The notes: a model not told the origin generated them from the letters alone. A stretch of 36,401 nucleotides of DNA from Phycisphaerales bacterium (GCA_018882625.1 VERO01000001.1:1-36401); one strand, 5' to 3'. Counted from the first letter of the stretch, positions 3,784-23,498 are shown. Numbers and translations are program-made.

Positions 3784-5169
3784 ATGATGCGTGCGTTCCC
3801 GCCGCGGTCTGGGCTGGTGCCCGCGCTCCTGTCGATGTCATGCCTCGCGCTTGGCGTTGTGACGCCAGCCGTGTCAGCCCAGCAGGCGCCCGTGAAGCGG
3901 GTGTCTCCGGAGGCTCCGCGTCCGCCAAGGTCCGCGCTGGCCAGGGCCACACCGGCGGAGGTCGCCGACTGGATACGGACCATCGTCGGCCGGCCGCTCA
4001 ACCGCGCCGAAGCCGCCGCGCTGCTGCGCGACTGGGGCGTGGACACCGACTCCGATCCCGCGCACCGTGGGGCACTCGATGCGGCGATGGAGGCGTTCAG
4101 GGTGCGATGGGACGCCTTCGCCAGCGCGGAGCTCAGTCCCATGGCGGAGCAGCGGGGCACCTCGCTCGCCGATCTCACCGCGGATCCGGCGCAATCGGCA
4201 TCGTTCATGGTGGATCTCCGCGCCCGTCGCCACGCGCTCGAGGATGCGATGCTCGACGAGTGCGCCCGTGCCTTGCCCGATGCGATGCGCACGAGGGTGG
4301 AGCTCGCGAAGGCTGCACGCGGATCTGAGGTGCCGGGGTGGGCGGCGGGCTCGCTCATGCCCGCAGCCACGGCCACGCCGCTGATGTCCATCGCATGGGA
4401 GGCCGCATACGTTCCGGAGGAGCGCCGTGATGAGGTGCGACGACTCGTGGAGAGTGCGCTCGCGAGCCATGCGCCGCCGCGGGGCAGGCTGATGGATGGG
4501 CTCCTGCGCGCGGCGCTCGAGTCGGACCTGATGGCCGACCGGGTTGCGGTCGAGGTGCAGGGTGCCGCGCGCCAGGTGCAGGAGTCGGGTTCGAAGGTCG
4601 ACGGCAATGCAGTCCTCGCCGTCGCCATGTCGCGCCAGCTCCTTCCGGTCATGTGCGCCGCGGGGGATGTGCAGGCGTCCAATGCCCAGATGCTCGAGTC
4701 GCTCAAGGGCGCGCTGACGCCGAGGGACTTCTCCGCGATGATGCAGGCGTACGCGCGGGCCGCGTCCATACCGCTGTCGCCGCAGCTCGATCCCGATGCG
4801 GCGCTGGCCAACATGCGCGCCGATGGCGGCTTCTCCGGTGCGCAGGTCGAGGCGATCGCGGCCATCGCCGACGCGTGGCGTGCGGACGATGCGGTGATCG
4901 TGATGTCCTACGTGCAGTCGCTGCCCGAGCTCTCGCGCAGCATGTGCGCGTCCCTGGGCGAGCTGCGCTGGAACGATCCTGCCACGCTTGCGGGCCAGTC
5001 CGCCACAGGCGACGGTCCGGCCCGCGTGCAGCAGCGGCAGATGCAGCTGGTGCAGGGTCGCACCGAGCGTGCGACCGCCGCAGTCGCCCTGATGAAGTCG
5101 CAGCTGTCGCCCGAGGAGTGGGATCGCATCAGGCCCACCAAGCCGCTCGCATGGCCATCACCCAAATGA
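3784..5169 (+). CDS. Hypothetical secreted protein, Ala/Arg/Leu-rich, predicted mostly helical
   Basis: The N-terminus MMRAFPPRSGLVPALLSMSCLALGVVTPAVSAQQ looks like a signal peptide. I recognise no catalytic motif. The TGA stop overlaps the ATG of the next gene (ATGA at 5166-5169). The track ORF starts at 3655; I chose the ATG at 3784 on signal-peptide logic. Confidence 0.6.
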   Translation: MMRAFPPRSGLVPALLSMSCLALGVVTPAVSAQQAPVKRVSPEAPRPPRSALARATPAEVADWIRTIVGRPLNRAEAAALLRDWGVDTDSDPAHRGALDAAMEAFRVRWDAFASAELSPMAEQRGTSLADLTADPAQSASFMVDLRARRHALEDAMLDECARALPDAMRTRVELAKAARGSEVPGWAAGSLMPAATATPLMSIAWEAAYVPEERRDEVRRLVESALASHAPPRGRLMDGLLRAALESDLMADRVAVEVQGAARQVQESGSKVDGNAVLAVAMSRQLLPVMCAAGDVQASNAQMLESLKGALTPRDFSAMMQAYARAASIPLSPQLDPDAALANMRADGGFSGAQVEAIAAIADAWRADDAVIVMSYVQSLPELSRSMCASLGELRWNDPATLAGQSATGDGPARVQQRQMQLVQGRTERATAAVALMKSQLSPEEWDRIRPTKPLAWPSPK

Positions 5170-7691
5170 TCCCTCATGCACCCGATCGCCTCAGCGCCCT
5201 TGGAGGATCGCGCACCTCAGCACCGCGCGAACGTGGCATCCGGCTGCATGTCGCATCAGCGGCCCTGATCGTCGCCGCGGTCGCGTCATATGGCCCCGTG
5301 ACCGCTGCGCATGCGTGGCAGGACCAGCGTGCCCCGCCTGCAGATGGGCCGCCTCGACAGAGCCAGCCGGCACGCGCGCCAACGCGAGGCGTCGCTCCGC
5401 TCGAGCCGGCATGGCGCGCAGACCAGCGCGCGATGCTCGCGAGCGTGCACCGCATCGCCGCACCAGGCACCCCGGGGACGCTGGCGCTGTGGTCCCCCGA
5501 CGCGATCCCTCTCGTGCTCGATGGATCCAACCCGCCGTCTGTGGTGGCGGCGGCGTCCCCGATGGGGAAGGGCAGGGTGGTGCTGCTCACGCACAGCTAC
5601 CTCGATGACCGTGTGCTCGCGGCGGACGACACCGCGCGCTTCATCGCCAACTGCATCTGGTGGCTGGCAGGGGCCAAGGATGCCCCGAAGGTCGTGATCG
5701 CGGGGGCGCCATCGCCACGGCGCCTGAAGCCTGCGGGCATCGACGCGAAGTCGCTCGGCAGCGACTGGACATCGCGTCTGGACGATGCGGACGTGCTGCT
5801 GCTGGCCACCGCCAACCTCAGCGACGACGAGATCGCGGCGGTGCGCCGCTTCATCGCGCGCGGAGGAGGCGTGCTCGCCGGCATGTGCCCGTGGGGCACG
5901 GCGCAGGTGAGGCGCGAGCCTGTCGATCGCACGCCCCTTGCTCGGCTCTTCGCGCCAAGCGGCATCGCGTTCACCGACGGGTACGCGCGCACGGACCGAG
6001 GCGGATTCGACGCGTGCACGCTCCCGACCCCCTCCAGTAACGGCGCGCTCGCGTTCGATGCGCTCGAGGATTTCGCGCTCGGACGCGCGGTGCCCCGGGA
6101 CTCGCCGCTCGCTCCGCCCCAGCCGCTGGAGCCCGATGCGCATGCGGGCCACGACCATGGCCCGCCCCGCAAGGTCGACGAGACGCAGACCGCAGTGCAT
6201 GCGGCCACCGAGGTGGTGCGCTGGATCCCGGACTGGAACGAGGTGCCGGAGGCACAGCGCACGATGTCGCGCATCGAGTCGCTCCGCTCCACGCACTCGC
6301 GGGGCATCGTGCCGCGGCCAGAGTCCCCGATCCAGCGGCAGGACGGTCTCGGGCGCGCCCTTGCCGCCGCCGAGATTGCCGCGTTCGCGCGCATGCAGCC
6401 CGCTGCCGCGCGTGCGTATCCAGGCGCGCGCGACTACCCGGGCGAGGTCGCACGCGACACGCCGCGCATCGAGCGCGAGTGTCGCGTTCCGCTCGCGGTG
6501 CCGAGGTGGCACTCCACCGGCCTCTACGCACCGGCCGGCGGGCCGATCCGGATCAGCATCCCCCCGGACGCGTCAGGCGCCGGACTCGCGGTGCGGATTG
6601 GCCCGCATACCGATTCGCTCTGGCACCTCGACTCGTGGCAGCGTGCGCCGGACATCTCCCTGGCGTGGACGCTCGACTCCGCGCAGACCGATGTGGTCAG
6701 CCCGTACGGGGGCCTCGTCTACATCGAGGTTCCCGAGCGCATCGCGATCGAGGCGCGCCGCTCGGGCGAGTCGCCAACGGTGCTCGTCACGATCGCGGGC
6801 GCCGTCGAGGCGCCGTACTTCAAGCTCGGCGTCACGAGCGCAGACGAGTGGCGGTCGCGCATCCGGACTCTCGGCGCGCCGTGGGCCGAGCTCGCCACTG
6901 ACAAGGTCGTACTCACGGTGCCTGCATCCGAAGTGCGCGAGCTCGACGATCCCGCCGCGCTCATGGCCTTCTGGGATTCGCTCATTGACGCGGCAAGCGA
7001 CCTGCGCGGCATCCCGCGCGACCGGCCGTTCCCGCACCGCTATGTCGCCGACGTGCAGATCAGCGCGGGCTACATGCACGCGGGCTACCCGATCATGACG
7101 CATCTCGACGCATCGATCCCGATGACGCGGCTGGACCAGATGCGCAAGGGCCAGTGGGGGCTCTTCCACGAGCTCGGCCACAACCACCAGGACTCGATGT
7201 GGACCTTCGAGGGCACTGGCGAGGTCACCTGCAACCTGTGGTCGATCTACCTGCTCGAGACCTGCTGCGGCACGACGTGGGAACCCGGCAACGAGGGCCA
7301 CGGCAACCGCGAGCGTCGGTGGGCGGAGTACGACGCGGATGGTCGCCCCTTCGGCAAGTGGCAGTCCGATCCGTTCCTGGCGCTGCAGATGTACGAGCAG
7401 GTCAAGAACCGGTTCGGATGGCAGCCGTTCACGGCGGTGTTCCGCGAGTACGACCGGCTGCCGCGCGACCAGAGGCCCAAGGGCACGCAGGAGCAGATCG
7501 ACCAGTGGATGGTGCGGCTCTCTCGCGCGTGCAGCCACAGCCTCGCGCCGTTCTTCGATGCGTGGGGCGTGCCCATCACCGATGGCGCGCGCGCCGAAGT
7601 CAAGGACCTTCCCGTGTGGATGCCTGAGGGACTCACCCCACGCGATGCCTCAGCACCGCCAGCCACGATCGGGCGCCCCCGTCGTGGCTGA
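5166..7691 (+). CDS. Peptidase M60-like (enhancin/TCAF-like) gluzincin with an N-terminal accessory domain
   Basis: The zinc motif HELGHNHQ begins at 7167, followed by FEGTGE, matching the HExxH...E gluzincin pattern. The stretch APYFKLGVTSADEWRSRIRTLGAPWAELATDKVVLTVP resembles the M60-like N-domain seen in TCAF/enhancin-like proteins. A hydrophobic signal-like segment RLHVASAALIVAAVASYGPVTAAHA lies near the start. An alternative ATG is at 5151. The track ORF start at 4653 is read-through. Confidence 0.8.
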   Translation: MIPHAPDRLSALGGSRTSAPRERGIRLHVASAALIVAAVASYGPVTAAHAWQDQRAPPADGPPRQSQPARAPTRGVAPLEPAWRADQRAMLASVHRIAAPGTPGTLALWSPDAIPLVLDGSNPPSVVAAASPMGKGRVVLLTHSYLDDRVLAADDTARFIANCIWWLAGAKDAPKVVIAGAPSPRRLKPAGIDAKSLGSDWTSRLDDADVLLLATANLSDDEIAAVRRFIARGGGVLAGMCPWGTAQVRREPVDRTPLARLFAPSGIAFTDGYARTDRGGFDACTLPTPSSNGALAFDALEDFALGRAVPRDSPLAPPQPLEPDAHAGHDHGPPRKVDETQTAVHAATEVVRWIPDWNEVPEAQRTMSRIESLRSTHSRGIVPRPESPIQRQDGLGRALAAAEIAAFARMQPAAARAYPGARDYPGEVARDTPRIERECRVPLAVPRWHSTGLYAPAGGPIRISIPPDASGAGLAVRIGPHTDSLWHLDSWQRAPDISLAWTLDSAQTDVVSPYGGLVYIEVPERIAIEARRSGESPTVLVTIAGAVEAPYFKLGVTSADEWRSRIRTLGAPWAELATDKVVLTVPASEVRELDDPAALMAFWDSLIDAASDLRGIPRDRPFPHRYVADVQISAGYMHAGYPIMTHLDASIPMTRLDQMRKGQWGLFHELGHNHQDSMWTFEGTGEVTCNLWSIYLLETCCGTTWEPGNEGHGNRERRWAEYDADGRPFGKWQSDPFLALQMYEQVKNRFGWQPFTAVFREYDRLPRDQRPKGTQEQIDQWMVRLSRACSHSLAPFFDAWGVPITDGARAEVKDLPVWMPEGLTPRDASAPPATIGRPRRG

Positions 7692-8534: not shown

Positions 8535-9779
8535 GTGCACCACGTCGACACCCTCACGAGCCCGACCGCCGCCAAGTCCGCCACCAAGAGCTCCGCGGTG
8601 ACCGACGCAGAACGTGCCAAGCTGGTGGCCGACGTCGAGGCCTACTGCCAGGAGATCCGTCCCATCGAGGAGATCTGCTACCTCGAGCACCGCCCGAACC
8701 CCGCGATCGCCGAGCTCGCCAAGAAGCACAACCTGCTTGGCATGGCGATGCCGAAGGAGTACGGCGGCCGCGGCATGGACAGCCTGACCTACGCGCGCGC
8801 GCTCGTGCGCATCAACCGTGAGGGCACCGGCGTCCGCACATTCTTCTCGGGCCACACCTCGATCGGGCAGTACCCGATCCTCAAGTACGGCACTGACGAG
8901 CAGAAGAAGCGCTACCTGCCCAAGTCGTGCACGGGCGGATGCACACTCGCCTTCGGACTCACCGAGCCCGAAGCCGGATCGAACCCGCTCGAGGGCACCT
9001 GCACCTACCGCCGCGAGGGCGGCAAGCTCATCATGAACGGGGTCAAGTACCTCATCTCGAACGGCTCGATCGCGGATGCCGTGATCGTGTTCGCGTTCCC
9101 TGAGGGCTCGACCGGCAAGGACCGCCGCATGAGCGCGATCATCGTCGACACCGCAGGCGACACCTTCGAGAAGGAGGCGCTGCATGCCAAGCCCGGCATG
9201 TACACCTCCGACACCGCGATGTTCCAGATGAACGACCACCCGGTCAATGGCGACAACATGCTCGGCAAGGAAGGCGAGGGCTTCCGCATCGCGATGCACA
9301 CCCTCGTCTCCGGCCGCCTCTCGGTGGCCTCGGGCTGCCTCGGCACGATCGAGGACTGCCTCGACGAGTGCCTGCGCTACGCGCGCGAGCGGCACCAGCA
9401 CGGCAAGCCGATCGGCAAGCACCAGCTCGTGCAGGAGCACATCGCACGCATCGAGTTCATGCGCGCCACCAGCGACGCCATGATCGAGCGCGCCGCGATC
9501 GCCAAGGAGATCTCCGACAACGCGCCTGGCGACGCCGACCTGCTCTCGAAGGCAGACTTCGCGGTGGCCGAGGCCAAGTACTGGGCGAGCAACGCTGCCT
9601 GGGAGGCCGTGGACCGCGCAGTGCAGGTCTTCGGCGGCCGCGGCTGGAGCGAGCTCTACCGTCCCTTCCGTCACCTGCAGGATGTGCGCGTATGCCGCAT
9701 CTACGAGGGCACGGACGAGATCATGAAGCTCAAGATCGCGAGCAAGCTGCTCGGCAAGGGCTTCGAGGCTTTCGCCTGA
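8535..9779 (+). CDS. Acyl-CoA dehydrogenase family protein
   Basis: The full length matches the ACAD pattern: GLTEPEAGSNP, GEGFRIAMHTLVSGRLSVASG, ARERHQHGKPIGKHQLVQ and IYEGTDEIMKLKIA. GTG start at 8535, preceded by GGAGAG at 8524-8529. Confidence 0.92.
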   Translation: MHHVDTLTSPTAAKSATKSSAVTDAERAKLVADVEAYCQEIRPIEEICYLEHRPNPAIAELAKKHNLLGMAMPKEYGGRGMDSLTYARALVRINREGTGVRTFFSGHTSIGQYPILKYGTDEQKKRYLPKSCTGGCTLAFGLTEPEAGSNPLEGTCTYRREGGKLIMNGVKYLISNGSIADAVIVFAFPEGSTGKDRRMSAIIVDTAGDTFEKEALHAKPGMYTSDTAMFQMNDHPVNGDNMLGKEGEGFRIAMHTLVSGRLSVASGCLGTIEDCLDECLRYARERHQHGKPIGKHQLVQEHIARIEFMRATSDAMIERAAIAKEISDNAPGDADLLSKADFAVAEAKYWASNAAWEAVDRAVQVFGGRGWSELYRPFRHLQDVRVCRIYEGTDEIMKLKIASKLLGKGFEAFA

Positions 9780-9780
9780 T

Positions 9781-10242
9781 TCAGCCGCGCTTCTCGACGG
9801 CGGTCCGCATCCCGTCAAAGCCCTGCTTGATCACCTGATCCGCCGCCGCGCGGATGATGGTTGTCCCCACGGCCGCGACGAGCCCGCTCATCTTCTGGAT
9901 CGTGGCGGTCCACTTGAGGTCGCACGCGCCGCCCTCGGCAGGGGCGAGGTCCATCTCCGCCTTCACGGTGAACGCGGTGCCGATGCCGCTCGCGTCCACC
10001 TGCATCACGATGCGCGTGCCGGGCACGCGCTCGATGATCGTGAACGTCTGCTTCAGCGTGGTGCGGATGAAGCTGAACCCGGGACGCACCGAGCACTTGA
10101 TGGCGCTGTCGCCGACGCGCTCGCTTGACACAAGCCCGGGCACGATCTTGACGAGCTCATCGAGGTTGGTGACGAACGCATAGACGGCGTCTGGAGATGC
10201 GGCGAGACGCTCGGTGCCGGAGAAGGGCTCGTAGGTGGCCAT
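9781..10242 (-). CDS. SRPBCC-superfamily protein, CoxG-like (hydrophobic ligand-binding fold)
   Basis: 153 aa. The N-terminus and the pattern (VYAFVTNLDELVKIVPG ... FIRTTLKQTFTI ... IIRAAADQVIKQGF) match CoxG / carbon monoxide dehydrogenase subunit G-type SRPBCC proteins. Confidence 0.75.
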   Translation of the reverse strand: MATYEPFSGTERLAASPDAVYAFVTNLDELVKIVPGLVSSERVGDSAIKCSVRPGFSFIRTTLKQTFTIIERVPGTRIVMQVDASGIGTAFTVKAEMDLAPAEGGACDLKWTATIQKMSGLVAAVGTTIIRAAADQVIKQGFDGMRTAVEKRG

Positions 10243-10324
10243 AGGGTCGCGGAGTCTAGGGGCTTGCGCCGCGGACGCGGCGGACGCGAGTCAGGCTGGA
10301 TGCTGCCGCACCTAGCATCACGCC

Positions 10325-11053
10325 GTGGCCGCAATGCTCGAGTCCCGACAGCTGGTTCCGGAGCGCATGGACGATCCGGCGCTGCCGGCGCACGATCATG
10401 ACCGCGCGCTGGCAGACCTGGCGCGCCTGAACTCGCTCGCGCGGAGCGCCGCAATCCTGTGGCCCGGCGTGCGTGCCGAGCTGCAGCGCGCCGCATCGCA
10501 GGGCCGCATCGCCACAGTGCTCGATGTGGCGACGGGATCGGGCGACATCCCTGTGACGCTCGGCCGATGGGCCCGCCGCGAGGGGATGCAGGCCCGTTGG
10601 ATCGGCGTCGACGCGAGCGCGCACGCGCTGGCGCGGGCTGCAGACCGGGCAGGCCGCGAGGGGATCGAGCTCGAGCTGCATGAGGCGGATGCCACGCGAT
10701 CGCTTCCCGTTCGCGCCGACGTGGTCATCAGCAGCCTGTTCCTGCACCATCTCGATCAGGCGCACGCTGTTGATGCGCTGCGCGCGATGTCCGCTGCGGC
10801 GCAGTCGACGCTTCTCGTCAGCGACCTGCGACGGAGCGCACCGGGGCTCGCGCTCGCGTGGACGGCATCGCGTGTGCTCAGCCGGTCGCCCGTGGTGCAC
10901 TTCGACGCGGTGGCGTCGGTGCGCGGCGCGTTCAGCGTGCGCGAGCTGCGCGGCCTTGCGGAGGCCGCAGGGTTGCATGGCGCGACGGTCCGTCATGCGT
11001 GGCCGCAGCGCATGCTGCTGCGGTGGTCGCCGGGCGATGGGAGCCGGTCATGA
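10325..11053 (+). CDS. SAM-dependent methyltransferase, first gene of the type III PKS operon
   Basis: Motif I VLDVATGSGDIP, then WIGVDAS, and an acidic loop SSLFLHHL. Start is GTG 10325 or ATG 10334. The TGA stop overlaps the next ATG (ATGA at 11050-11053). Confidence 0.8.
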   Translation: MAAMLESRQLVPERMDDPALPAHDHDRALADLARLNSLARSAAILWPGVRAELQRAASQGRIATVLDVATGSGDIPVTLGRWARREGMQARWIGVDASAHALARAADRAGREGIELELHEADATRSLPVRADVVISSLFLHHLDQAHAVDALRAMSAAAQSTLLVSDLRRSAPGLALAWTASRVLSRSPVVHFDAVASVRGAFSVRELRGLAEAAGLHGATVRHAWPQRMLLRWSPGDGSRS

Positions 11054-12216
11054 GCGCGCTCGCCGCGACGCCACAGGATCCAGCGCCCCGCGTGCCGACC
11101 GTCGAGCGGGCCGATGCCGTCGTGATCGGCGGCGGACCCGCAGGCAGCGTGACTGCGGCGCTGCTGGCCCGGCAGGGGATGCGCACTGTCCTGCTCGAGC
11201 GCGAGCGGTTCCCGCGCCACAAGGTGTGCGGATGCTGCCTCGGGCCGCGCGGCGTGGCGGCGCTCGCACGCGCGCAGCTCGGCGACGCCATAGAAGGATC
11301 GCACGCGCTCGAATCCGTCTCGCTGGCGCACAGCACGCGCTGGATGTCGCTGCCGCTGTTCGGCACGCGCGTGATGGGCCGCGACGTGATGGACTCTCGG
11401 CTCGCCAGCAGTGCCGCACGGGAGGGATGCGACGTCCGGATGGGCATGCGCGCGGCGGTAGTGGATGCGGGGGGCGGGCGCGGTCCCGCGCAGGTCTCTG
11501 TCTCTGAGGCAGGCCATTCGCAGTCGCGCACGATCCTCGCCCGGATCGTGGTCTGCGCCGACGGCATCGGCGGCACATCACTGTCGCCGCTATGCGGCAC
11601 TGCATCGTGGGCAGTGGAGCCCCACTCGAGGTTCGGGGTCGCGGCCACGCTGCCGGCTGGCACGCTCGGCGTCCCTGCAGGCCAGCTCTGGATGATGTCG
11701 CACGCCGATGGATATGTCGGTGCGGTGAGGCTTCCCTCAGGTGACGTCGATGTCGCTGCGGCGCTCGACCCCGCAGCCGCACGGCGCACCGGCGGACCGG
11801 GCGCACTCATCGCCGCGGTGGTCGCCGGATGTGGCCGCCTGCTTGCGGACGCCGCCGCGCACCGGTGGAAAGGCACGCCTGCGCTCACCCGGCGCCGCGC
11901 ATGGGTCGCGCGGGACCGGGTCATCTGCGTCGGCGACGCCGCGGGCTACGTCGAGCCGTTCACGGGCGAGGGCATGAGCTGGGCGATCGAAGGCGCGGTC
12001 GTCGCGGCGCGCATCGCGCCCGCTGTCATGGCGTCCGGGGATGCCACACCGTGGTCACTCGCACTTGCAGATGCCATCGGTGCCCACCAGCGCCGGTGCC
12101 GCCGGGTTGCCGCCATGCTGAGATATCCGCGCGCCACGATGTGCGCACTGCGGGCAGCATCGCGTGTCCCGGGCATGCGCCGCCGCCTTGGTGCGATCGC
12201 GACGGGCGCGTCATGA
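11050..12216 (+). CDS. FAD-dependent oxidoreductase (geranylgeranyl reductase / flavin monooxygenase-like)
   Basis: Dinucleotide fold DAVVIGGGPAGSVTAALLARQGMRTVLLER near the N-terminus, and a GD motif VICVGDAAGYVEPFTGEGM. Start ATG at 11050 overlaps the upstream stop, and the stop overlaps the next ATG at 12213-12216. The track ORF start at 10858 is read-through. Confidence 0.85.
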   Translation: MSALAATPQDPAPRVPTVERADAVVIGGGPAGSVTAALLARQGMRTVLLERERFPRHKVCGCCLGPRGVAALARAQLGDAIEGSHALESVSLAHSTRWMSLPLFGTRVMGRDVMDSRLASSAAREGCDVRMGMRAAVVDAGGGRGPAQVSVSEAGHSQSRTILARIVVCADGIGGTSLSPLCGTASWAVEPHSRFGVAATLPAGTLGVPAGQLWMMSHADGYVGAVRLPSGDVDVAAALDPAAARRTGGPGALIAAVVAGCGRLLADAAAHRWKGTPALTRRRAWVARDRVICVGDAAGYVEPFTGEGMSWAIEGAVVAARIAPAVMASGDATPWSLALADAIGAHQRRCRRVAAMLRYPRATMCALRAASRVPGMRRRLGAIATGAS

Positions 12217-13394
12217 GCGGGCAGCACGGCATCGGGATGGATGCGGCGACGCGCGGACACACGCGTCCGCGCCCTGGCCGCGTGGGCTCCCGTGCCCCTG
12301 CGATCCGCTCCATCGGCACGGCGGTTCCCGAACGGTCCCTCTCCGCGGCGCGGTCCCTTGAGGTGGCGCGCGCGCTCACGCCCGAGGAGGTGCCGGTGTC
12401 GCTCCTGCGCCGCCTGCACGAGCGTTCGGGCATCGAGGCGCGAGGATGCGCGGTGCTTGCCCACGACGGATCGGTGCCGATCTACGGCGTGGCCGCAGCG
12501 GATGTGGCCGTGGCCACGAGCCCAGGCACGGCGGACCGCATGCAGGCCTATATGGAGGCGGCCGAGACCATGGCGATCGATGCGTCACGCCGCGCACTCG
12601 CGCACGCGCAGGTTGACGCATCGCGCATCACCCACCTCGTGACGGCATCGTGCACCGGATTCGCGGCCCCTGGTGTCGACCAGTCGATCATCGGTGCGCT
12701 TGGCCTCGGGGCCCACGTGCGGCGCACGCACATTGGCTTCATGGGATGCCATGCCGCAGTCAACGCGCTGGCGGTCGCCTCCGCCTTCGCGGCCGCTGAC
12801 CGCGACGCGTGCGTGCTGCTGGCGTGTGCCGAGGTGTGCACGGTTCACTTCCAGGCGAGCGCGCGGGTGGACCGGGTGGTCGCCAACACGCTGTTCGCCG
12901 ACGGCGCCGCAGCCGCAGTCGTATCCGCCGCGCCAGCCGATGACGATGGCGGAGTGCAGGGCCCCTTCGGTTGCCCTGCGGTGGCGCGCTGCGCATCGGC
13001 GATCATCCCCGACTCCGTGGGCTCGATGGCGTGGCACATCGGTGACCATGGGTTCGAGATGACGCTCGGCGCTGACGTGCCCGACCGCATTGCAGCGGCG
13101 CTCCCGGCATGGGTGGATCGCGAGCTGGCCGCGCTGGGCATGGCGCGCCACGAGGTGGGCGGATGGGCGATCCATCCGGGGGGTCCGCGCGTCATCGATG
13201 CCGTCATCGCGTCGCTTGGGCTTCCGGCGGCCGCCGGCGACGCATCGCGCGCCGTGCTCCGCCGGCACGGCAACATGTCCTCCGCCACGCTCCTCTTCAT
13301 CATGGATGAGATGCGCCGCGCTGGAGCGCCGCGGCCGTGGATCGGCCTCGCATTCGGCCCGGGTCTCGCGGGCGAGATGGTGATCCTCGCGTGA
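12213..13394 (+). CDS. Type III polyketide synthase (chalcone/stilbene synthase superfamily)
   Basis: Cys-His-Asn triad in conserved contexts: VTASCTGF (Cys codon 12651-12653), WAIHPGGPRV (His 13173-13175) and HGNMSSATLLF (Asn 13272-13274). The His-Asn spacing is 33 residues, as in chalcone synthases. The C-terminal GFGPGL-type motif is AFGPGLAGE. Confidence 0.93.
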   Translation: MSGQHGIGMDAATRGHTRPRPGRVGSRAPAIRSIGTAVPERSLSAARSLEVARALTPEEVPVSLLRRLHERSGIEARGCAVLAHDGSVPIYGVAAADVAVATSPGTADRMQAYMEAAETMAIDASRRALAHAQVDASRITHLVTASCTGFAAPGVDQSIIGALGLGAHVRRTHIGFMGCHAAVNALAVASAFAAADRDACVLLACAEVCTVHFQASARVDRVVANTLFADGAAAAVVSAAPADDDGGVQGPFGCPAVARCASAIIPDSVGSMAWHIGDHGFEMTLGADVPDRIAAALPAWVDRELAALGMARHEVGGWAIHPGGPRVIDAVIASLGLPAAAGDASRAVLRRHGNMSSATLLFIMDEMRRAGAPRPWIGLAFGPGLAGEMVILA

Positions 13395-14242
13395 GCAGCC
13401 CGCCTGCGACGGTGCACGGCGCGCCAACGCTTGAGGTGCCAGTCGACTCGATCGATGCCGTGGAGGTGGCGGCGCCACTGGCCGACCGCATCGAGCTCTG
13501 CGACGACCTCGCGACCGAAGGTTGGACGCCGGCCGCCGCACTGGTGCGCGCCGCGCGCGCCGTCAGCGATGCGCAGCCTGCGGGTCACCGCCCACGCATC
13601 ATCGCGATGATCCGGCCGCGGCTTCCCGGGTCCACCCTGTCGCTCGATGCCGCAGCGTTCGCCGCCACCGACCGGATCATGGCCGCGTCGATGCGCGAGA
13701 TCGCGGCGTGCATCGACGCCGGTGCGCACGAGATCGCGATCGGGTTGCTGGACGCGCATGGCCGCATCGATGTCGCCGCCTGCGCACGGTTGCGCGACGC
13801 TGCGCTCTCCCGCGGCGTCCCGGTGGCGTTCCTGCGCGTCTTCGACCTGCTCAAGGACCGTGCGCAGGGCTGGCATGACATGGCGCGGCTGGGCATCGGC
13901 CGCGTGCTCACGGCGGGGGTGCTCGGATGGGATGCAGGCATTGCGGCAGTCGATGCGCGCGCTCGGGTCATCGCTGAGGACGCTGCATGCGCTGCCGCGG
14001 CATTCGCGTCGGGCGGCATCCGGGATTCGGCTCCTGCGGTTTCGCGTCAAGGCCTCGCACCTCACGCGCACGTTGCGGACCACCCGGTCGCCATCGCGGC
14101 GGGCGGCGGAGTGCGTGCCTCCAACTCAGCCGAGTTCCTCTGCGTGACTCGCCACCTCCATGCATCCTGCAGGGTCGGTGGGCGCATCAGCGCCGCCGAG
14201 CTGGCCGCGCTTCAGGCGTGCATTCACGGCAGCAGGGGCTGA
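13391..14242 (+). CDS. cutC: CutC-family protein (TIM-barrel, 'copper homeostasis protein CutC' family)
   Basis: Blocks collinear with CutC: LEVPVDSIDAVEVAAPLADRIELCDDL..GWTP, IIAMIRPR, FLRVFDLL, LGIGRVLTAG and IAAGGGVRASN. GTG start at 13391 overlaps the PKS stop (GTGA at 13391-13394). Confidence 0.7.
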   Translation: MSSPPATVHGAPTLEVPVDSIDAVEVAAPLADRIELCDDLATEGWTPAAALVRAARAVSDAQPAGHRPRIIAMIRPRLPGSTLSLDAAAFAATDRIMAASMREIAACIDAGAHEIAIGLLDAHGRIDVAACARLRDAALSRGVPVAFLRVFDLLKDRAQGWHDMARLGIGRVLTAGVLGWDAGIAAVDARARVIAEDAACAAAAFASGGIRDSAPAVSRQGLAPHAHVADHPVAIAAGGGVRASNSAEFLCVTRHLHASCRVGGRISAAELAALQACIHGSRG

Positions 14243-14265
14243 CCCGATTGCCGTAGCCTTGCCGC

Positions 14266-15390
14266 GTGCCCCGCGACAATGCCATCGATCCTCCTGACAC
14301 GCCGGCCCATGGCCGCGTCTACAACTTCTCCGCAGGTCCCGCATGCATGCCCGAGAGCGTGCTCGTGCAGCTGCAGGGCGAGATGCTCAACCTCTTCGGC
14401 ACGGGCATAGGACTCCTCGAGCACAGCCACCGCGGCGCCGCGTACGACCGGCTGCTCGACGAGGCGCTTCACGCCGTGCGCGCATGCGCCGGCGTGGGGC
14501 CCGAATGGGAGATCCTCTTCATGCCGGGCGGCTCGATGCAGCACTTCCCGCTGCTGGCCATGAACTTCGTGCCCACCGGCGGCAGCGCGGCGTTCCTGGA
14601 CACCGGTCTCTGGGCGCACAAGGGCGCTGCGGAGACGTCTCGCGTCTGCACCGTGCGGACGCTCTTCGATGGCACGAAGGTCCGCTACGCGCATGTGCCC
14701 GAGGCGCGCGAGATCGCCGATCCAGGCGACGCGGCCTACCTCTGCTACTGCTCGAACAACACCGTCGAGGGCACCCAGTTCCGTGCGCCGCCGCGCACCG
14801 CTGTGCCGCTCTTCTGCGACGCGACCAGCGACATCTTCTCGCGCGACCTCGACTGGGATGCGCACGAGCTCGTCTTCGCCAGCGGCCAGAAGAACCTCGG
14901 CGCGTCGGGCATCTGCGTCGTCTTTGCGCGCACCTCGCTGCTGGCGCGCGCGAACGCGTCGCTGTCGCCCATGCTCAGCTACGCGCATTTCGCCAAGACC
15001 CAGTCGAGGCCCAACACCCCGCCCACGTTCGGAGTGCGCGTGATCGGCCTGATGGCCAAGTGGACCCTTGACCATGGCGGGACGGCAGCCTTCGCGCGCC
15101 GCGCTGCCGAGCGCTCGGCGATCGTGTACGCGGCGATCGACCGCAGCGGGGGCTTCTACCGCGGCTCCTCCGAGGCTGGCTGCCGCAGCACCACGGCCAT
15201 CAGCTTCCAGCTCCCAAGCGACGCGCTCGTCGACGCCTTCGTGAGCGAGTCCGAGTTGCAGGGACTCCACGGGCTGCGCGGTCACCGCGAGTGGGGTGGC
15301 ATCCGCGCCTGCCTCTACAACGCGTTCCCGTCGCAGGGCTGCACGCTGCTCGCATCCTTCATGGACGACTTCGCGCGGCGTCGCGGCTGA
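14266..15390 (+). CDS. serC: Phosphoserine aminotransferase (3-phosphoserine/phosphohydroxythreonine transaminase)
   Basis: The N-terminal hallmark YNFSAGPA, the PLP-lysine context ASGQKNLGASG, and the C-terminal GGIRACLYNA all match SerC. GTG start at 14266. Confidence 0.92.
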   Translation: MPRDNAIDPPDTPAHGRVYNFSAGPACMPESVLVQLQGEMLNLFGTGIGLLEHSHRGAAYDRLLDEALHAVRACAGVGPEWEILFMPGGSMQHFPLLAMNFVPTGGSAAFLDTGLWAHKGAAETSRVCTVRTLFDGTKVRYAHVPEAREIADPGDAAYLCYCSNNTVEGTQFRAPPRTAVPLFCDATSDIFSRDLDWDAHELVFASGQKNLGASGICVVFARTSLLARANASLSPMLSYAHFAKTQSRPNTPPTFGVRVIGLMAKWTLDHGGTAAFARRAAERSAIVYAAIDRSGGFYRGSSEAGCRSTTAISFQLPSDALVDAFVSESELQGLHGLRGHREWGGIRACLYNAFPSQGCTLLASFMDDFARRRG

Positions 15391-15411
15391 CAGGGCGGCA
15401 TCCTCAATCCC

Positions 15412-15831
15412 ATGAAGCACCTCACGGAGCACCTGTGGATGCACGTCAAGGGCCGGCGCGGCTTCGTGCACCTGACGCCGAAGGTGGAGGAGCTCGTGGC
15501 GCGCAGCGGCGTCCAGGAGGGTCTTGTGCTGGTCAACGCCATGCACATCACCGCGAGCGTGTTCATCAATGACCACGAGGAGGGGCTGCTGCACGACTGG
15601 GAGACCTGGCTCGAGCGGCTCGCGCCACACGCGCCCACCAGCCAGTACCGCCACAACCTCACTGGCGAGGACAACGCCGACGCGCACCTCAAGAGGCAGG
15701 TGATGGGCCGCGAGGTGGTGGTCGCGATCACCGGCGGCGCGCTCGACCTGGGTCCCTGGGAGCAGATCTTCTACGGCGAGTTCGACGGCAACCGCCGCAA
15801 GCGCGTGCTGGTGAAGATCATCGGCGAGTGA
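15412..15831 (+). CDS. YjbQ/UPF0047 family protein (secondary thiamine-phosphate synthase-like)
   Basis: 139 aa with family blocks [30 protein letters not shown] and [14 protein letters not shown]. Confidence 0.85.
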
Positions 15832-15835
15832 GTCG

Positions 15836-17113
15836 ATGGCAGGCACCCCGTCCGCCGTCGTCACCGGCACCAACCCCGGATCCCGTGCAGGGCGCATCGC
15901 CACCGCAGCGACCGCCGCGTATGTGGCGATCCTCGCGCTTGTGACGCTTCTTGCGCTCGACCGCGTCGTCGAAGGCAAGATCAACGACTTCTACGGCTAC
16001 TGGGATGCGGCACGCACGGTGATCGAGGGCCGACCGCTCGGCGAAGCGTGGGGCATCGTGTGGATGCCGCTGCTCACCTACATCATCCTTCCGCTGGGGC
16101 TGATTCCGCTGCTCGCGTCGGCCGCTGCGTGGACGCTGGTCAACGCGCTGCTTGCGGCGTTCCTGTGCCATGTCGCGGCTGCTGCGGCCGTGCGCGCGAG
16201 TGGAGGAGCGCCCGACACGGCCCGTGTGCCGGTCGTGCGCCTGGTTGCCCTGGTGGTGATGCTTCCGCCCATCCGCAATGTGATGTACGAGGGGCAGTTC
16301 GACCTGCTGCTCGCGCTGCTGTGCACACTCGCCATCGCGGGCCTCGCCAGCGGCAGGCGCGTCGGCCCCGCCGCGGGCGTGGTGGCCGCAGCGGTCGTCA
16401 AGTGGTCATCGGTGGCGCTGTTGCCGTGGATGATGGTGCGGCGGCCGCTGTCGGTCCTGTGGGCCGCAGCGTTCGCCGCAGTCGCGGCCTTCGCACCCGC
16501 GCTCATCCTCGGAATCCCGGAGTGCATGGCGCAGCTGCGGCGCGCGCTGTCGGGCCCGGTGGCCGCCACAGCCCCGTACCTCACGATGCCCGACCGCTGG
16601 TCGCTGACCAATGGACTTGGGCGCATCGCCAATGCCATTGGGATCAGCCCCCACGCAGGCCGATGGAGCGCGATCGGCGCATGCGCCGCGCTTGCAGCAC
16701 TGTTCCTGTGGCAGTACCGGTTGCGCGGCGTGCGCTGGTTCGGCACCAAGGCGCGAGCCCATCGCCCCGCCGTCCGCCCATCGACACTGCTTGCCGAGGG
16801 CGCTGCGATGATGGCGCTGCCGCTGGCCATTCACCCGCATGTGGCCACCCGCCACGCGGTCGTCATGGTGCTGCCCGCTGCGATTCTCGCGGCAGCGCTT
16901 GTGGCGCGAGCATCACGATCCTCTGCGCGGCTCGCAGCGGCGGGAATCGCCGTGATGGCCATCACCTGGTACATGCCGTATCCGGTGCGCGGATGGTGGC
17001 AGTGGGCCGGCGGCCCCGCCCTGGCCGTGCTTGCATCGGCGGCGATCGCGCTGTGGACCCAGTTGCCGGCACGCTCGCGCGGCCAGGCCGATGCGGTCGC
17101 GCCGGAGGCCTGA
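15836..17113 (+). CDS. Polytopic membrane protein, GT87/DUF2029-like glycosyltransferase (tentative)
   Basis: About 10 hydrophobic segments. The N-terminal loop NDFYGYWDAARTVIEGRPL resembles the D..Y loop of DUF2029 mannosyltransferase-like proteins. The assignment rests on pattern only. Confidence 0.5.
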   Translation: MAGTPSAVVTGTNPGSRAGRIATAATAAYVAILALVTLLALDRVVEGKINDFYGYWDAARTVIEGRPLGEAWGIVWMPLLTYIILPLGLIPLLASAAAWTLVNALLAAFLCHVAAAAAVRASGGAPDTARVPVVRLVALVVMLPPIRNVMYEGQFDLLLALLCTLAIAGLASGRRVGPAAGVVAAAVVKWSSVALLPWMMVRRPLSVLWAAAFAAVAAFAPALILGIPECMAQLRRALSGPVAATAPYLTMPDRWSLTNGLGRIANAIGISPHAGRWSAIGACAALAALFLWQYRLRGVRWFGTKARAHRPAVRPSTLLAEGAAMMALPLAIHPHVATRHAVVMVLPAAILAAALVARASRSSARLAAAGIAVMAITWYMPYPVRGWWQWAGGPALAVLASAAIALWTQLPARSRGQADAVAPEA

Positions 17114-17118
17114 CGGCT

Positions 17119-17529
17119 TCAGCGCGCGAGCTCGAGCCTCAGCGACTCTCCGTCCACTGCATTCGCAGGCGTCACGTGCACGACCACGGTCGCCCTGCGC
17201 GGTGCGTCAGCGCCGGCGCGGAACAGCAGCTCCCACTCGCCGGCAGCGACCTTTCCCGCAATGCCTGTGCGCTCGGGCGCATCGGTGTCCGTCGCGCGCA
17301 TCCGCCATCCCATCTCAGCGGGAGCGTTGCCGGTTCCGGACGCCCGGTACTTGCGCTCCGGCAGGATCGCGGCACCGTGAATGTCGCGCGATGCCTCCCA
17401 TGCAGATCCGTCTGCGGACAGGCGCCATCCGCCTTGCGGCGGCATCATCCACCACCTCACGAGGAACGCGGAGCACATCGCCACAGCGATGGCCCCGCCA
17501 ATCAGCATGCCCTTGCCGCGAGCAGTCAT
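17119..17529 (-). CDS. Hypothetical membrane-anchored protein
   Basis: The 136-aa product starts MTARGKGMLIGGAIAVAMCSAFLV, a single N-terminal transmembrane segment, followed by a soluble domain. This is the C-terminal part of the 421-aa track ORF; the upstream extension overlaps the OsmC gene and is rejected. Confidence 0.45.
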   Translation of the reverse strand: MTARGKGMLIGGAIAVAMCSAFLVRWWMMPPQGGWRLSADGSAWEASRDIHGAAILPERKYRASGTGNAPAEMGWRMRATDTDAPERTGIAGKVAAGEWELLFRAGADAPRRATVVVHVTPANAVDGESLRLELAR

Positions 17530-17607
17530 CTGCGGCAGGGTAATCCTGATAATGTCCCGAAGCTGCAGCGCCCCCGCAGGCGCTGGTGCAGAAGGAGACG
17601 CCCGCCC

Positions 17608-18018
17608 ATGGTCGAAGTCACTGTCCGCTACGAAGGCAACCTGCGCTGCAGCGCCACCCATGGGCCGTCGGGCACCGTCATTCTCACCGATGCCCCTGTC
17701 GACAACCACGGCAAGGGAGAGGCGTTTTCGCCCACCGACCTCCTTGCCGCGGCGCTGCCGTCGTGCATGATGACGATCATGGGGATCGTCGCGCAGCGTC
17801 ACGGCATCGCGCTCGAGGGCATGACGGCCACGACGCGCAAGGAGATGACCACCGAAGGTCCTCGGCGCATCAGGCGTCTCGTCACCACGATCCGCGTGCC
17901 TCTTCTGCCGACGCATCCTCACCGCGAGGCGCTCGAGCGCGCTGCGCACACCTGTCCCGTGCACAAGAGCCTCGGAGCCGAGGTTGACATGCCCGTCGAG
18001 TTCGTGTGGGCGGGGTAG
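17608..18018 (+). CDS. OsmC family protein (peroxiredoxin-like)
   Basis: 136 aa with two conserved Cys contexts (LLAAALPSCMM and AHTCPVHKSL) typical of OsmC/Ohr. The ATG at 17608 is preceded by GAAGGAGAC. The track ORF from 16048 is read-through across the GT87-like gene in another frame. Confidence 0.85.
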   Translation: MVEVTVRYEGNLRCSATHGPSGTVILTDAPVDNHGKGEAFSPTDLLAAALPSCMMTIMGIVAQRHGIALEGMTATTRKEMTTEGPRRIRRLVTTIRVPLLPTHPHREALERAAHTCPVHKSLGAEVDMPVEFVWAG

Positions 18019-18025
18019 GGGACGC

Positions 18026-19402
18026 ATGATGCGTCGCGCCCCACATCTGCAGTGTGCGTACGCGGCATGCGCGCTCGCACTGCTCGCGCCTGGGACCGTC
18101 GCGTCCGCAGACTTGCCGAAGTACCTGCCGCAGCTGCAGGCCCGCGTCAGCGGCTTCGATGGATTCAACCTGCCCACGGGCAGCTCGTTCTCGAGCGGCA
18201 CGCCTGACATCGACGACCAGGGGATCGTCGCGTTCCGCCTGATCGGGGTCGGGCTCACTGGCATAGGCGGCATGTGGGTCGGCGCGAACGGCAGCGGCAG
18301 CATCGTGTACCAGGCGCCGAGCGCCGATCCCGTGATCACGGATCCCGGCATTGCCGCTGGTGCGGTCGTCTTCGACCAGTACACGCTCCCCGGCTCTCAG
18401 GGGCTTCGCCGGTACAGCATCCTCACTGGTCAGACATCCGTCGCGATCCAGCCGGGCGGTGCCATCGGCGTGACGTACTTCGGCTCGCCCCAGGTGCTCG
18501 ATGATGGGCGCATCGGATTCCGCGCAACCATCGGGTCCAGCAACTACGCGCACGTGATTCACTCGGCAGGCACCTCGACGGTGATCGTGGGCACCCCAGC
18601 TGCGCAGCCTGGCAGCCCATACAGCTTTCTCTTCACGCCTTCGTTCAACCAGGCTGGACATGTGGCAAGCAAGGTCCAGCGTGCCGCCGGCGGCAACGAG
18701 ATCAGGATCTTCCGCATCGACGGCACCTCAACGCTGATCGCGTCGGACGCCGCCGCTGCACCAGGCTCCCCCTACACGGGCTTCGACAACAGCGTCGCGC
18801 TGACGAGCACCGGCGACGTCGCCTTCATCGCGAGCCTCGGTGGCGGGGTGCGCGGAGTGTTCCTCTCCAACGGAACCGCCACCTCGCAGATTGCGCGCAC
18901 GCAGGCCGGCCAGATCAACGAGATCGAGTTCTTTGCGCCCGCAGCGAGCGACACCGGGCTCGTCGCATTCCGGGGCCGCGATGGCGCAGGCAAGCGCTCC
19001 ATATTCGTAGGCGACGGCACTGAGCTGGTGCGCGTGGTCGGCGACGGTTCGCCAATGCCGAGCGACCTTGGAGACGCCAAAGTCGGCCGACCCGACACCA
19101 GTCCCGTCTTCGGCGGCAATCCGCGCATGAACGCGCGGGGCGACCTTGTGTTCGGATGCTCGATCATGCCGCTTGGAAGTTCCTCTGGAACGTGGGGCTC
19201 CGCGGTGTACGTGCTTCGCGCCCAGGAGCCCAGACGCCCCGCCGACATCAACGGTGACGGCACGGTCAACGGGCTCGACCTCACGGCGCTGCTCGCGGCA
19301 TGGGGCGCGTGCCCGACTGCGGGCGACTGCGCGGCTGATGTGGACGGCAGCGGCACTGTGGATGGCCTTGACCTCACCGCACTGCTCGCCGACTGGGGCT
19401 GA
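18026..19402 (+). CDS. Secreted tandem-repeat (NxxGxxAF-type, propeller-like) protein with a C-terminal dockerin-like module
   Basis: Signal peptide MMRRAPHLQCAYAACALALLAPGTVASA. About seven recurrences of a x(D/N)xxGxV(A/V)F motif (DDQGIVAF, DDGRIGF, NQAGHVAS, TSTGDVAF, SDTGLVAF, NARGDLVF). The C-terminus is ADINGDGTVNGLDLTALLAAWG...DVDGSGTVDGLDLTALLADWG. Confidence 0.75.
   Translation: MMRRAPHLQCAYAACALALLAPGTVASADLPKYLPQLQARVSGFDGFNLPTGSSFSSGTPDIDDQGIVAFRLIGVGLTGIGGMWVGANGSGSIVYQAPSADPVITDPGIAAGAVVFDQYTLPGSQGLRRYSILTGQTSVAIQPGGAIGVTYFGSPQVLDDGRIGFRATIGSSNYAHVIHSAGTSTVIVGTPAAQPGSPYSFLFTPSFNQAGHVASKVQRAAGGNEIRIFRIDGTSTLIASDAAAAPGSPYTGFDNSVALTSTGDVAFIASLGGGVRGVFLSNGTATSQIARTQAGQINEIEFFAPAASDTGLVAFRGRDGAGKRSIFVGDGTELVRVVGDGSPMPSDLGDAKVGRPDTSPVFGGNPRMNARGDLVFGCSIMPLGSSSGTWGSAVYVLRAQEPRRPADINGDGTVNGLDLTALLAAWGACPTAGDCAADVDGSGTVDGLDLTALLADWG
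19241..19399 (+). other. Dockerin-like duplicated Ca-loop module (copy 1 of 4 in the window)
   Basis: ADINGDGTVNGLDLTALLAAWGACPTAGDCAADVDGSGTVDGLDLTALLADWG. These are two D-x-[ND]-G-D-G-x-[VI]-[ND]-x-x-D-L-x-x-L-L-x-x-W-G segments. Confidence 0.8.
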
Positions 19403-19473
19403 GCGGCTACCCGCATCTCAGGGTGACGGTCGAGCACGCTGCGATGCAGCTGCGGGCGGTGCGGACTCGGTTC

Positions 19474-19502
19474 GGCGGCCTCCACGCGCCGCTGGAGCCG
19501 CC
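19474..19502 (+). terminator. GC-rich hairpin downstream of 18026..19402 (possible terminator or RNA element)
   Basis: GGCGGcCTCCA-CGCGCCGC-TGGAGCCGCC gives 10 bp with one bulge and an 8-nt loop, about 70 nt after the stop. No U-tract follows. Confidence 0.25.
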
Positions 19503-19634
19503 TGCACGGCTCCTTCACAGAACCCTAACGAAGGCATCACGTGACTTTGCGCGCGTGGGGCCCATGATGGCAGTGCGGGTTCCCTCCCGCGCGGTTCCTG
19601 TCCCTTTCCCTACACCCTTCCAGGATTCGACATC

Positions 19635-21847: not shown

Positions 21848-23494
21848 ATGGCAGGCGCGATCACCCAGCACGAGCTCGTCGGCGCCCTCAGGGATCCGGT
21901 CGCGCTGGGCTGCGCGCAGGGCACTCCAGTGGATGTGGTGCACACCCACGCGTCGACGGTGCTGCTGTGCGGGGACCGTGCCTGGAAGCTCAAGAAGCCC
22001 GTGCAACTCGGGTTCCTCGACTTCTCCACGCTCGAGCGCCGCCGCGCGGACTGCGATCGCGAGATCGCGCTCAACCGTCGCCTAGCTCCTGAGATCTACC
22101 TCGGCCTGAGCGCCGTGGTGCGACGCGGCGCGGCGCTGCGGATGGTGGATGCACCCGTCGCTGTCGAGGAAGCCGTCGAGTGGGCCGTCCGGATGCGCCG
22201 GATGCCTGCCGATGGCATGCTGGACCGGCTCGTGCCGCGCGGCGGAGTGACTGCGCAGCACGTGCGCGAGTTCGCCCGTCGTCTCGCGGACTTCCATGCG
22301 AGTGCAGGGCCTGCCGTTGTGGCCCAAGACCACGGATCCGTGGAGCAGCTGGCAGATCGCCTGCGCAGCAACCTTGAGCGGCTCGCGCGCGGCGCTCTGT
22401 CGGCCCGTGGCGCGAAGGGCAGAGATGGCGGCCGGGCGGGGGATGCAGACATGCCCCTTCAGCAGGAGTTCGTCGATGCGCTGCGCCAGTCGGCCGAGCG
22501 GCTACTGGTGCGGGTGGCGCCGTTGCTGCACGAGCGCCGCGCACAGGGACGCGTGCGCGATGGCCATGGCGACCTGCATGCACGCAATCTGTGCATGATC
22601 GACGGGACCATCACCGCATACGACTGCCTCGAGTTCGACGACTCGCTCCGATGCGCGGACGTCGCCGCCGATGTCGGATTTCTCGCGATGGACCTCGCGC
22701 GCCTAGGCCGCAGTGACCTGGCCCAAGAGTTCGTCGCCGAGTACGCGAGGGCTAGCGGGGACAGCGGCATCGCAGAGCCTGTGCAGCTCTTCAGCGTCCA
22801 CTATGCCATCGTGAGGGCGATGGTGGAGTCGATCCGCCTGGACCAGGCCGATATGTCGCTCACCGAGCGTCCCGCAGTCGTCCGCGCGATCCGCGAGTTC
22901 GCCATGCTTGCAGCGGGATACGCGGTCGAGCCAGCCACCGTGATCATGATGGGGCTGCCCGCGACCGGCAAGAGCACGCTTGGCCGTGCGCTGGCTGGCC
23001 ACCTTCGCGCTCGGATCATCGAGAGCGACCGCATCCGCAAGGAGCTGCACGGCATCGCGCCGACCGCGAGGGGCACCCCTGAGATGTACAGCGCCGCCGC
23101 CACGGCGCTCACGTACGCCGAGCTTGCGAACAGGGCGCAATCCGCCGCCGGCTCGGTGGTGATCGATGCGTCGCACCACGCGAGGGCTGGTCGAGCGTCG
23201 TCGGTCGCGGCAGCCGCCGGGCGCAGCGGCCCATGGCTGCTGCTCGAGGTCGACGCGGATCGCGCCACGATCGAGGCGCGCATGCAGCAGCGTGCACGGG
23301 ACGCGTCGAGTGTCTCGGATGCCACGCTGGATGTGCACGAGAGGCTCCTAGGGCGGCGCGAGGCTCCTGAGGAGGTGGATCCGCAGCACCGGCTCCGTGT
23401 GGTCAGCCGCGACGGCGACGGGTGGATCGACGACGCGTGCCAGCGGGCGCTGGCCCATTTGATGTTGTGTCGGGACTCCGATGGCGTACCTTGA
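21848..23494 (+). CDS. Bifunctional aminoglycoside phosphotransferase-like kinase / P-loop (AAA-type) kinase fusion protein
   Basis: The N-terminal half has the APH/choline-kinase catalytic loop VRDGHGDLHARNLCM and DCLEFDD. The C-terminal third has the P-loop MMGLPATGKSTLGRAL. Confidence 0.8.
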   Translation: MAGAITQHELVGALRDPVALGCAQGTPVDVVHTHASTVLLCGDRAWKLKKPVQLGFLDFSTLERRRADCDREIALNRRLAPEIYLGLSAVVRRGAALRMVDAPVAVEEAVEWAVRMRRMPADGMLDRLVPRGGVTAQHVREFARRLADFHASAGPAVVAQDHGSVEQLADRLRSNLERLARGALSARGAKGRDGGRAGDADMPLQQEFVDALRQSAERLLVRVAPLLHERRAQGRVRDGHGDLHARNLCMIDGTITAYDCLEFDDSLRCADVAADVGFLAMDLARLGRSDLAQEFVAEYARASGDSGIAEPVQLFSVHYAIVRAMVESIRLDQADMSLTERPAVVRAIREFAMLAAGYAVEPATVIMMGLPATGKSTLGRALAGHLRARIIESDRIRKELHGIAPTARGTPEMYSAAATALTYAELANRAQSAAGSVVIDASHHARAGRASSVAAAAGRSGPWLLLEVDADRATIEARMQQRARDASSVSDATLDVHERLLGRREAPEEVDPQHRLRVVSRDGDGWIDDACQRALAHLMLCRDSDGVP

Positions 23495-23498
23495 GGCC

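Follow-up and report, generated by a model that had tools for sequence, protein, structure and literature searches.

A CutC-family gene as the probable passenger of a predicted hidABC-type alkylresorcinol cassette

What does a CutC-family protein have to do with a phenolic-lipid pathway when its gene starts on the stop codon of a type III polyketide synthase (PKS) gene? This question is raised by a stretch of DNA of 36,401 nucleotides from a Phycisphaerales bacterium (GCA_018882625.1 VERO01000001.1:1-36401), which was analysed at its full length and is called the window here. Four successive open reading frames (ORFs) on the + strand, at 10325-14242, encode a methyltransferase, an oxidoreductase dependent on flavin adenine dinucleotide (FAD), a type III PKS and a CutC-family protein. 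An initial annotation, made from the sequence alone, had suggested that the coupling of the fourth gene to the other three points either to a new tailoring or handling step for a phenolic lipid or to the real biochemical function of CutC. Our analysis favours, with a probability of about 0.65, an alkylresorcinol cassette of the known hidABC type, with the ordinary CutC gene of the lineage attached as a co-expressed passenger, since this CutC is found without the PKS within 8 kb in 70 of 74 species and the PKS without CutC behind it in 67 of 67 distant loci.

The methyltransferase, oxidoreductase and polyketide synthase genes

The four ORFs and the overlaps between them were all found where the initial annotation had placed them. 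The stop codon of the gene for a methyltransferase dependent on S-adenosylmethionine (SAM) (HidA-like, 10325-11053, 242 amino acids) overlaps the start of the gene for the FAD-dependent oxidoreductase (HidB-like, 11050-12216, 388 amino acids) in an ATGA at 11050-11053, and a second ATGA at 12213-12216 joins the latter to the gene for the type III PKS (HidC-like, of the alkylresorcinol-synthase type, 12213-13394, 393 amino acids). The CutC-family gene (13391-14242, 283 amino acids) starts with a GTG that overlaps the PKS stop in a GTGA at 13391-13394. The methyltransferase gene starts with GTG at 10325 or possibly with ATG at 10334, and for the ATG at 11050 the four-base overlap is conserved in relatives. 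Judging from the ATGA overlaps, the first three genes are predicted to form one translationally coupled unit; CutC is likely co-transcribed with them and probably co-translated, and this arrangement is conserved within the clade of close relatives in which CutC follows the PKS (the linked clade). The proposal of a tightly coupled unit is supported, with the three overlaps present and the PKS/CutC overlap in frame in all linked loci. Four-base overlaps occur at 5 of 11 same-strand junctions within the window, so that those described here mark tight packing and are no special feature.

Profile searches confirmed the proposed identities of the four genes. The methyltransferase is of the class I SAM type and matches Methyltransf_25 with 48 bits and a PRK06202-like NCBIfam model with 187 bits. 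The FAD protein matches FAD_binding_3 (63 bits) and TIGR02032 (115 bits) and is assigned the geranylgeranyl-reductase / class A flavoprotein fold. Both chalcone/stilbene-synthase domains, Chal_sti_synt_N and Chal_sti_synt_C (PF00195, PF02797), are contained in the PKS, and its catalytic triad is intact: Cys147, His321 and Asn354 are invariant in the PKS alignment, and the alignment with PKS18 agrees. Among solved structures, those nearest to this PKS belong to PKS18 and PKS11 of M. tuberculosis, which use long-chain acyl substrates.

Type III PKS genes accompanied by genes for a methyltransferase and a flavoprotein hydroxylase are found in the srsABC operon of Streptomyces griseus, in which the PKS gene comes first, followed by those for the methyltransferase and the hydroxylase; its products are alkylresorcinols and alkylquinones that carry methyl groups. 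The enzyme types are thus alike, but the order in the window differs (methyltransferase, FAD enzyme, PKS), a comparison made by gene order and not by sequence. The initial annotation had named srsABC and the ars genes of Azotobacter vinelandii as examples. We dropped these as models, on the grounds of gene order and of which homologues are nearest, in favour of hidABC and the corresponding planctomycetal operon, which have the same gene order as the window and are the closest known systems.

PMC8086630 and PMC10896814 describe the hidABC operon of picocyanobacteria, including that of Cyanobium sp. LEGE 06113, as the operon for hierridin B (Costa et al. 2019) and report hierridin-like clusters in cyanobacteria; in the former, HidC is said to form an alkylresorcinol from a long acyl starter and three malonyl-CoA units. 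The three enzyme types, their order (methyltransferase, oxidoreductase, PKS) and their location on a single strand are the same in hidABC and in the window. The window differs in being non-cyanobacterial, with a GC content of about 70%, and in carrying a CutC gene fused behind the PKS gene, and the likeness is one of gene types and order rather than of the sequences of HidA, HidB and HidC.

A relation is also seen to the Planctomycetota, in which 58 of 96 type III PKS genes end an operon of methyltransferase, FAD oxidoreductase and PKS genes, and in which the PKSs tested make C15 and C17 (pentadecyl- and heptadecyl-) resorcinols in Corynebacterium glutamicum (Milke et al. 2024, PMC10896814). 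The architecture is the same, and the public genomes closest to the window are metagenome-assembled genomes (MAGs) labelled Planctomycetota. The three proteins of the window match the tested operon of Gimesia maris in tblastn searches (mtr, E = 3e-19; fdo, E = 2e-12; t3pks, E = 7e-36), and the PKS also matches t3pks of R. baltica (E = 4e-53). Identity to these tested enzymes is moderate, about 31-39%, and is underestimated since the G. maris and R. baltica genes were taken from the supplement of PMC10896814 as machine-read text with errors of optical character recognition. Outside its own clade, the PKS is 55-60% identical to uncharacterised PKSs that are encoded in methyltransferase-FAD-PKS operons of metagenomes and of MAGs labelled Planctomycetota; it belongs to a different subclade from the tested planctomycetal PKSs. 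Colinear methyltransferase and FAD homologues precede the PKS in 45 of the 49 distant loci with enough upstream sequence. The planctomycetal operon also differs in its 3´ end: there the PKS gene is the last of three genes, whereas in the window CutC overlaps the PKS stop and three more genes lie close behind. The operon is thereby extended in a lineage-specific way.

Gene order and homology to the tested operon therefore agree with the earlier proposal that the first three genes form a type III PKS system for phenolic lipids of the alkylresorcinol type, and we assign 10325-13394 as a predicted hidABC-type cassette, a new lineage for an operon type that is already known. Its product would be a long-chain 5-alkylresorcinol derivative, because homologues make alkylresorcinols and the nearest solved structures are long-chain-acyl PKSs. 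By analogy with the characterised homologues, the PKS would load a long-chain fatty acyl thioester, add three malonyl-CoA units and cyclise the product to a 5-alkylresorcinol; the FAD enzyme would then oxidise or hydroxylate the ring, and the SAM methyltransferase would methylate the ring product.

The CutC protein and the reach of its linkage

The assignment of the fourth ORF to the CutC family was borne out by its profile match and its fold. PF03932 is matched with 92 bits against a cut-off of 23.3 over profile positions 3-149 of 202, and multiple alignments place the motifs of the C-terminal part in register with those of the family. The AlphaFold model (predicted local distance difference test score 90, predicted template modelling score 0.88) is a triosephosphate isomerase (TIM) barrel; in a Foldseek search of the PDB, the best 19 matches were all CutC structures (E = 1e-16 to 3e-11), followed by the next at about 1e-6, five orders of magnitude behind. 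The E. coli-type equivalog NCBIfam PRK11572 gives 53.6 bits, below its cut-off of 311, and because this score is so far under the cut-off the protein is placed, by sequence, in a divergent CutC subfamily.

The TIM barrel and the motifs ELC, IRPR, F.R.FD, RVLT.G, GGGV and H.S are common to this protein and the CutC proteins of E. coli/Shigella, human, Streptococcus agalactiae and Bacillus anthracis, although it is only 18-24% identical to the solved CutC proteins. Unlike the CutC proteins with an EVC motif, the subfamily lacks the first conserved Cys: the Cys of ELC is retained (C37), but where human CUTC has the Cys of MEVCVDS, 57 of 57 subfamily members have a Pro (LEVPVDS), which is thus invariant. 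In addition, a variable insert of about 25 residues, modelled at low confidence, is present at residues ~208-233. Two conserved cysteines were reportedly proposed as Cu(I) ligands when the structure of human CUTC was published, and the EVC cysteine replaced here by Pro is presumably one of these two. A search of the literature for an enzymatic role of CutC returned nothing relevant, and the family is without an established activity.

The initial annotation had noted that CutC has no place in the clusters described so far. This stands: no mention of CutC together with a type III PKS was found in the literature, PMC8086630 and PMC10896814 treat this operon type without naming CutC, and in the latter the operon ends with the PKS gene. 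To see how far the linkage extends, the CutC alignment was compared with one genome per species, which gave 74 loci, and the proteins of the window were then used as tblastn queries against these. Genes for all three cassette enzymes adjoin CutC in only four of the loci (L014-L017), whose CutC proteins are at least 67% identical to that of the window and which form one clade. In the other 70 (43-53% identical), none of the three cassette genes lies within 8 kb. Individual look-ups of homologues agree: the four genes stand in a row in further close relatives (L001-L003, L008-L011 and L013), and the more distant CutC genes looked up are located behind a GNAT gene or stand alone.

Approached from the PKS side, the result is similar. 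CutC was found downstream of the PKS in none of 67 more distant loci from metagenomes in which the sequence continues for 900 bp or more past the PKS gene, using tblastn and a hidden Markov model (HMM) that recovered all control loci. A sister-type locus, L012, with a PKS that is 63% identical, has methyltransferase, FAD and PKS genes followed by gatB; it was compared with L004 for a clean insertion of the cassette by gatB, and the region proved to be rearranged.

Within the linked clade, the arrangement including the overlap is kept in about eight close relatives with distinct sequences, and the whole region is syntenic: the flanking proteins (acyl-CoA dehydrogenase, COXG, SerC, YjbQ) are 85-98% identical to those of the window. 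Such shallow synteny agrees with the remark that the genes flanking the planctomycetal operon are conserved only among close relatives (PMC10896814). Among the scanned contigs one CutC locus per linked genome was found; these MAGs are fragmented, and a second copy might lie on an unassembled contig. No conserved partner was found beside the unlinked CutC genes, the best neighbour clusters being present in 19 of 71 loci (a class-III aminotransferase and an NCS1 permease), which looks like lineage synteny. The MAGs with this CutC subfamily carry conflicting labels, namely Phycisphaerales, Isosphaeraceae, Singulisphaera, Gemmatimonadaceae, 'Klebsiella' and 'Kuenenia'.

The linkage of CutC and PKS is thus real yet phylogenetically shallow, restricted to one narrow clade. 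A search of gene neighbourhoods had been suggested in the initial annotation as a check on the synteny of CutC and type III PKS genes; synteny is present in close relatives and does not extend to distant loci. Because close relatives have it in common, the linkage cannot be called fortuitous on these data; the case for a functional connection is nevertheless weak.

Passenger or recruited partner

On the passenger reading, the CutC gene would have taken its place right after the PKS gene in a single ancestor, that of one narrow clade, so that it starts on the stop codon of the PKS. The gene would lie outside the conserved cassette, and its product would most likely do the same job as in the many relatives where the gene is located elsewhere. 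Besides the two scans, this reading is favoured because a single CutC copy was found among the scanned contigs of each linked genome, its motifs are invariant and no shift in rate is seen, and because unlinked CutC genes have no conserved partner while the housekeeping genes serC and yjbQ follow at 21-23 nucleotides. A start/stop overlap shows co-expression, not shared function. The step from coupling to a new tailoring reaction or to the true function of CutC is not supported, with the linkage confined to a single narrow syntenic clade and present in 0 of 67 distant PKS loci and 4 of 74 CutC species.

Several observations speak against a passenger. All linked loci have an in-frame ATG or GTG that overlaps the PKS stop, and in 5 of the 12 linked loci listed the PKS reading frame ends with GCA, a rarer alanine codon, before the stop, so that CutC has an ATG start. 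Insertions are seen ahead of the methyltransferase gene (LysR, OtsA, OtsB) and behind CutC (a DUF4394 gene), and none was found within the four-gene stretch, PKS and CutC included, in the linked relatives, so that the four genes behave as a block. Furthermore, the linked CutC clade is monophyletic, and no internal branch of the CutC tree is longer than the one that leads to it. From such evidence a genuine functional link acquired in this lineage could be argued, which we consider unlikely, though the likeliest of the alternatives.

Part of this evidence loses force on closer inspection. Alanine codons in the window are GCG (49%), GCC (29%), GCA (15%) and GCT (7%), so that G or A in the wobble position of the last PKS codon is expected in 64% per lineage, too frequent for a signal of selection on the start codon; the GCA/ATG signal is weak also because the linked loci share ancestry and are not independent lineages. 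The long CutC branch may reflect only the phylogenetic distance from the other members. Linked and unlinked CutC proteins agree without exception in 59 columns of their alignment, among them every residue of the motifs. Within the linked clade, CutC divergence is about 2.3x that of SerC, and in 18 unlinked loci it is about 2.7x that of the neighbouring aminotransferase; as these relative rates are similar, CutC is a fast-evolving family in which no rate shift followed linkage.

A recruited CutC would act either in an extra tailoring or handling step or as a guard against the copper-catalysed oxidation of resorcinol or hydroquinone lipids. The clade-wide conservation of the overlap and the block that stayed intact while both sides took insertions are in line with this, as is the GC content of CutC at codon positions 1 and 3, which is like that of the cassette genes and unlike that of the flanking housekeeping genes, although this last point is weak, since several unrelated genes of the window share it. 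The rationale for a copper guard is speculative: PMC6356496 cites a reference for oxidative damage to DNA by resorcinol-copper(II) complexes. Against recruitment stands that the linkage is confined to one shallow, fully syntenic clade and came without a dedicated paralogue, a motif change or a rate shift. The invariant Pro moreover takes the place of what is presumably one of the two cysteines said to be Cu(I) ligands in human CUTC. The copper role of CutC is itself doubtful, as the copper phenotype of E. coli cutC is caused by MicL, a small RNA (sRNA) encoded within the cutC gene (PMC4102768).

A second alternative, which we regard as improbable, is a larger stress or envelope operon that reaches from the methyltransferase gene to a gene for a GT87 glycosyltransferase (10325-17113) and is preceded by otsA and otsB in relatives; CutC, SerC, YjbQ and GT87 would in that case share their regulation with phenolic-lipid synthesis and have no direct connection in their biochemistry. 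The gaps along this stretch are -4, -4, -4, 23, 21 and 4 nucleotides with no terminator-like site found, relatives have the same downstream genes, and OtsB overlaps the methyltransferase gene in L008-L011. However, the downstream genes have a GC content at third codon positions of 0.90-0.95 against 0.81-0.83 and are far more conserved, in several relatives the DUF4394 gene is located between CutC and serC with gaps of 60-100 nucleotides, and promoter and terminator scans are uninformative for this organism group.

That CutC is translated independently from an internal start such as the in-frame GTG at 13412, 18 nucleotides past the PKS stop, with the GTGA overlap being incidental, is very improbable. 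Such a start would give an N-terminus as short as that of the unlinked orthologues, which begin 2-4 residues before the conserved TLEVP motif, and gene callers picked a downstream ATG 17 nucleotides past the PKS stop in L001-L003, but the start codon on the PKS stop is kept in frame throughout the linked loci, in 5 of the 12 listed as ATG, and an 18-nucleotide gap would still permit coupling by re-initiation.

Flanking genes and wider context

Upstream of the cassette, and divergent from it, a gene for a COXG/Polyketide_cyc2 (SRPBCC) protein is located on the - strand (9781-10242). The protein is conserved near the cassette throughout the clade and is 90-94% identical in relatives, in some of which inserted LysR, OtsA and OtsB genes separate it from the methyltransferase gene. 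It has a lipid-binding fold, and binding of the phenolic lipid could be its role, yet the gene travels with the adjacent acyl-CoA dehydrogenase gene. A promoter immediately ahead of the operon would, in this genome, have to fit into the 82 bp between the two divergent genes (10243-10324), which contain two short imperfect inverted repeats (10262-10287 and 10294-10324). A scan of 9500-19600 for promoter-like sites (sigma-70 consensus) and terminator-like sites found none, the consensus being uninformative for this type of organism. When the full window was compared with Rfam, a single RNA gene was detected, a tRNA-Val (anticodon CAC, 31291-31364, - strand), and neither a riboswitch nor a leader precedes the operon.

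Downstream of CutC, all on the + strand, follow the genes for a class-V aminotransferase (SerC-like, 14266-15390, after a gap of 23 nucleotides), a YjbQ/UPF0047 protein (15412-15831, after 21 nucleotides) and the GT87 membrane glycosyltransferase (15836-17113, after 4 nucleotides). The same genes follow CutC in L014-L016, where the gap between CutC and the aminotransferase gene is 0-26 nucleotides, and the transcript of cassette and CutC probably extends through serC and yjbQ to the GT87 gene.

Some relatives carry additional genes on either side. LysR, OtsA (trehalose-6-phosphate synthase) and OtsB (trehalose phosphatase) genes are located between the COXG and methyltransferase genes at L008:3884-6838, also in L009-L011, and at L001:1943-3319; in L008-L011 OtsB overlaps the methyltransferase start by about 35 nucleotides, and from this overlap the genes for trehalose synthesis may be transcribed together with the phenolic-lipid cassette in those relatives. 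The window is without these trehalose genes. A gene for a protein of about 345 amino acids, with faint to weak matches to DUF4394, Dockerin_1 or DUF6923, lies between CutC and the SerC-like gene at L001:7310-8362, L009:8292-9320 and L013:4423-5460; it is missing from the window and from L014-L016.

Elsewhere in the window, an ORF of more than 1667 amino acids (31400-36401, + strand) runs off the end and encodes six putative copper-binding repeats of the MopE type (PF11617) together with RTX calcium-binding repeats; it is located 17 kb from the CutC gene, and no sign of a connection between the two was found. Dockerin type I domains are present in secreted-looking proteins encoded at 17984-19402, 23481-25058 and 27032-31227. 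A GH18 chitinase with CBM2 (27032-28933) has a four-base overlap with a CBM2/dockerin protein (28930-31227), and an M60 peptidase is encoded at 4653-7691.

With the cassette, hidABC-type alkylresorcinol operons are now seen in one more lineage, of about 70% GC and with MAGs labelled Planctomycetota as its closest relatives. The CutC context is shallow and probably incidental, and we regard it as a weak lead; the attachment matters only if it is functional. Any genuine pathway context for CutC would be valuable, because no activity has been established for the family and the copper phenotype of E. coli cutC has been reassigned to an sRNA. If true, the recruitment of CutC would be the first biochemical handle on this widespread family.

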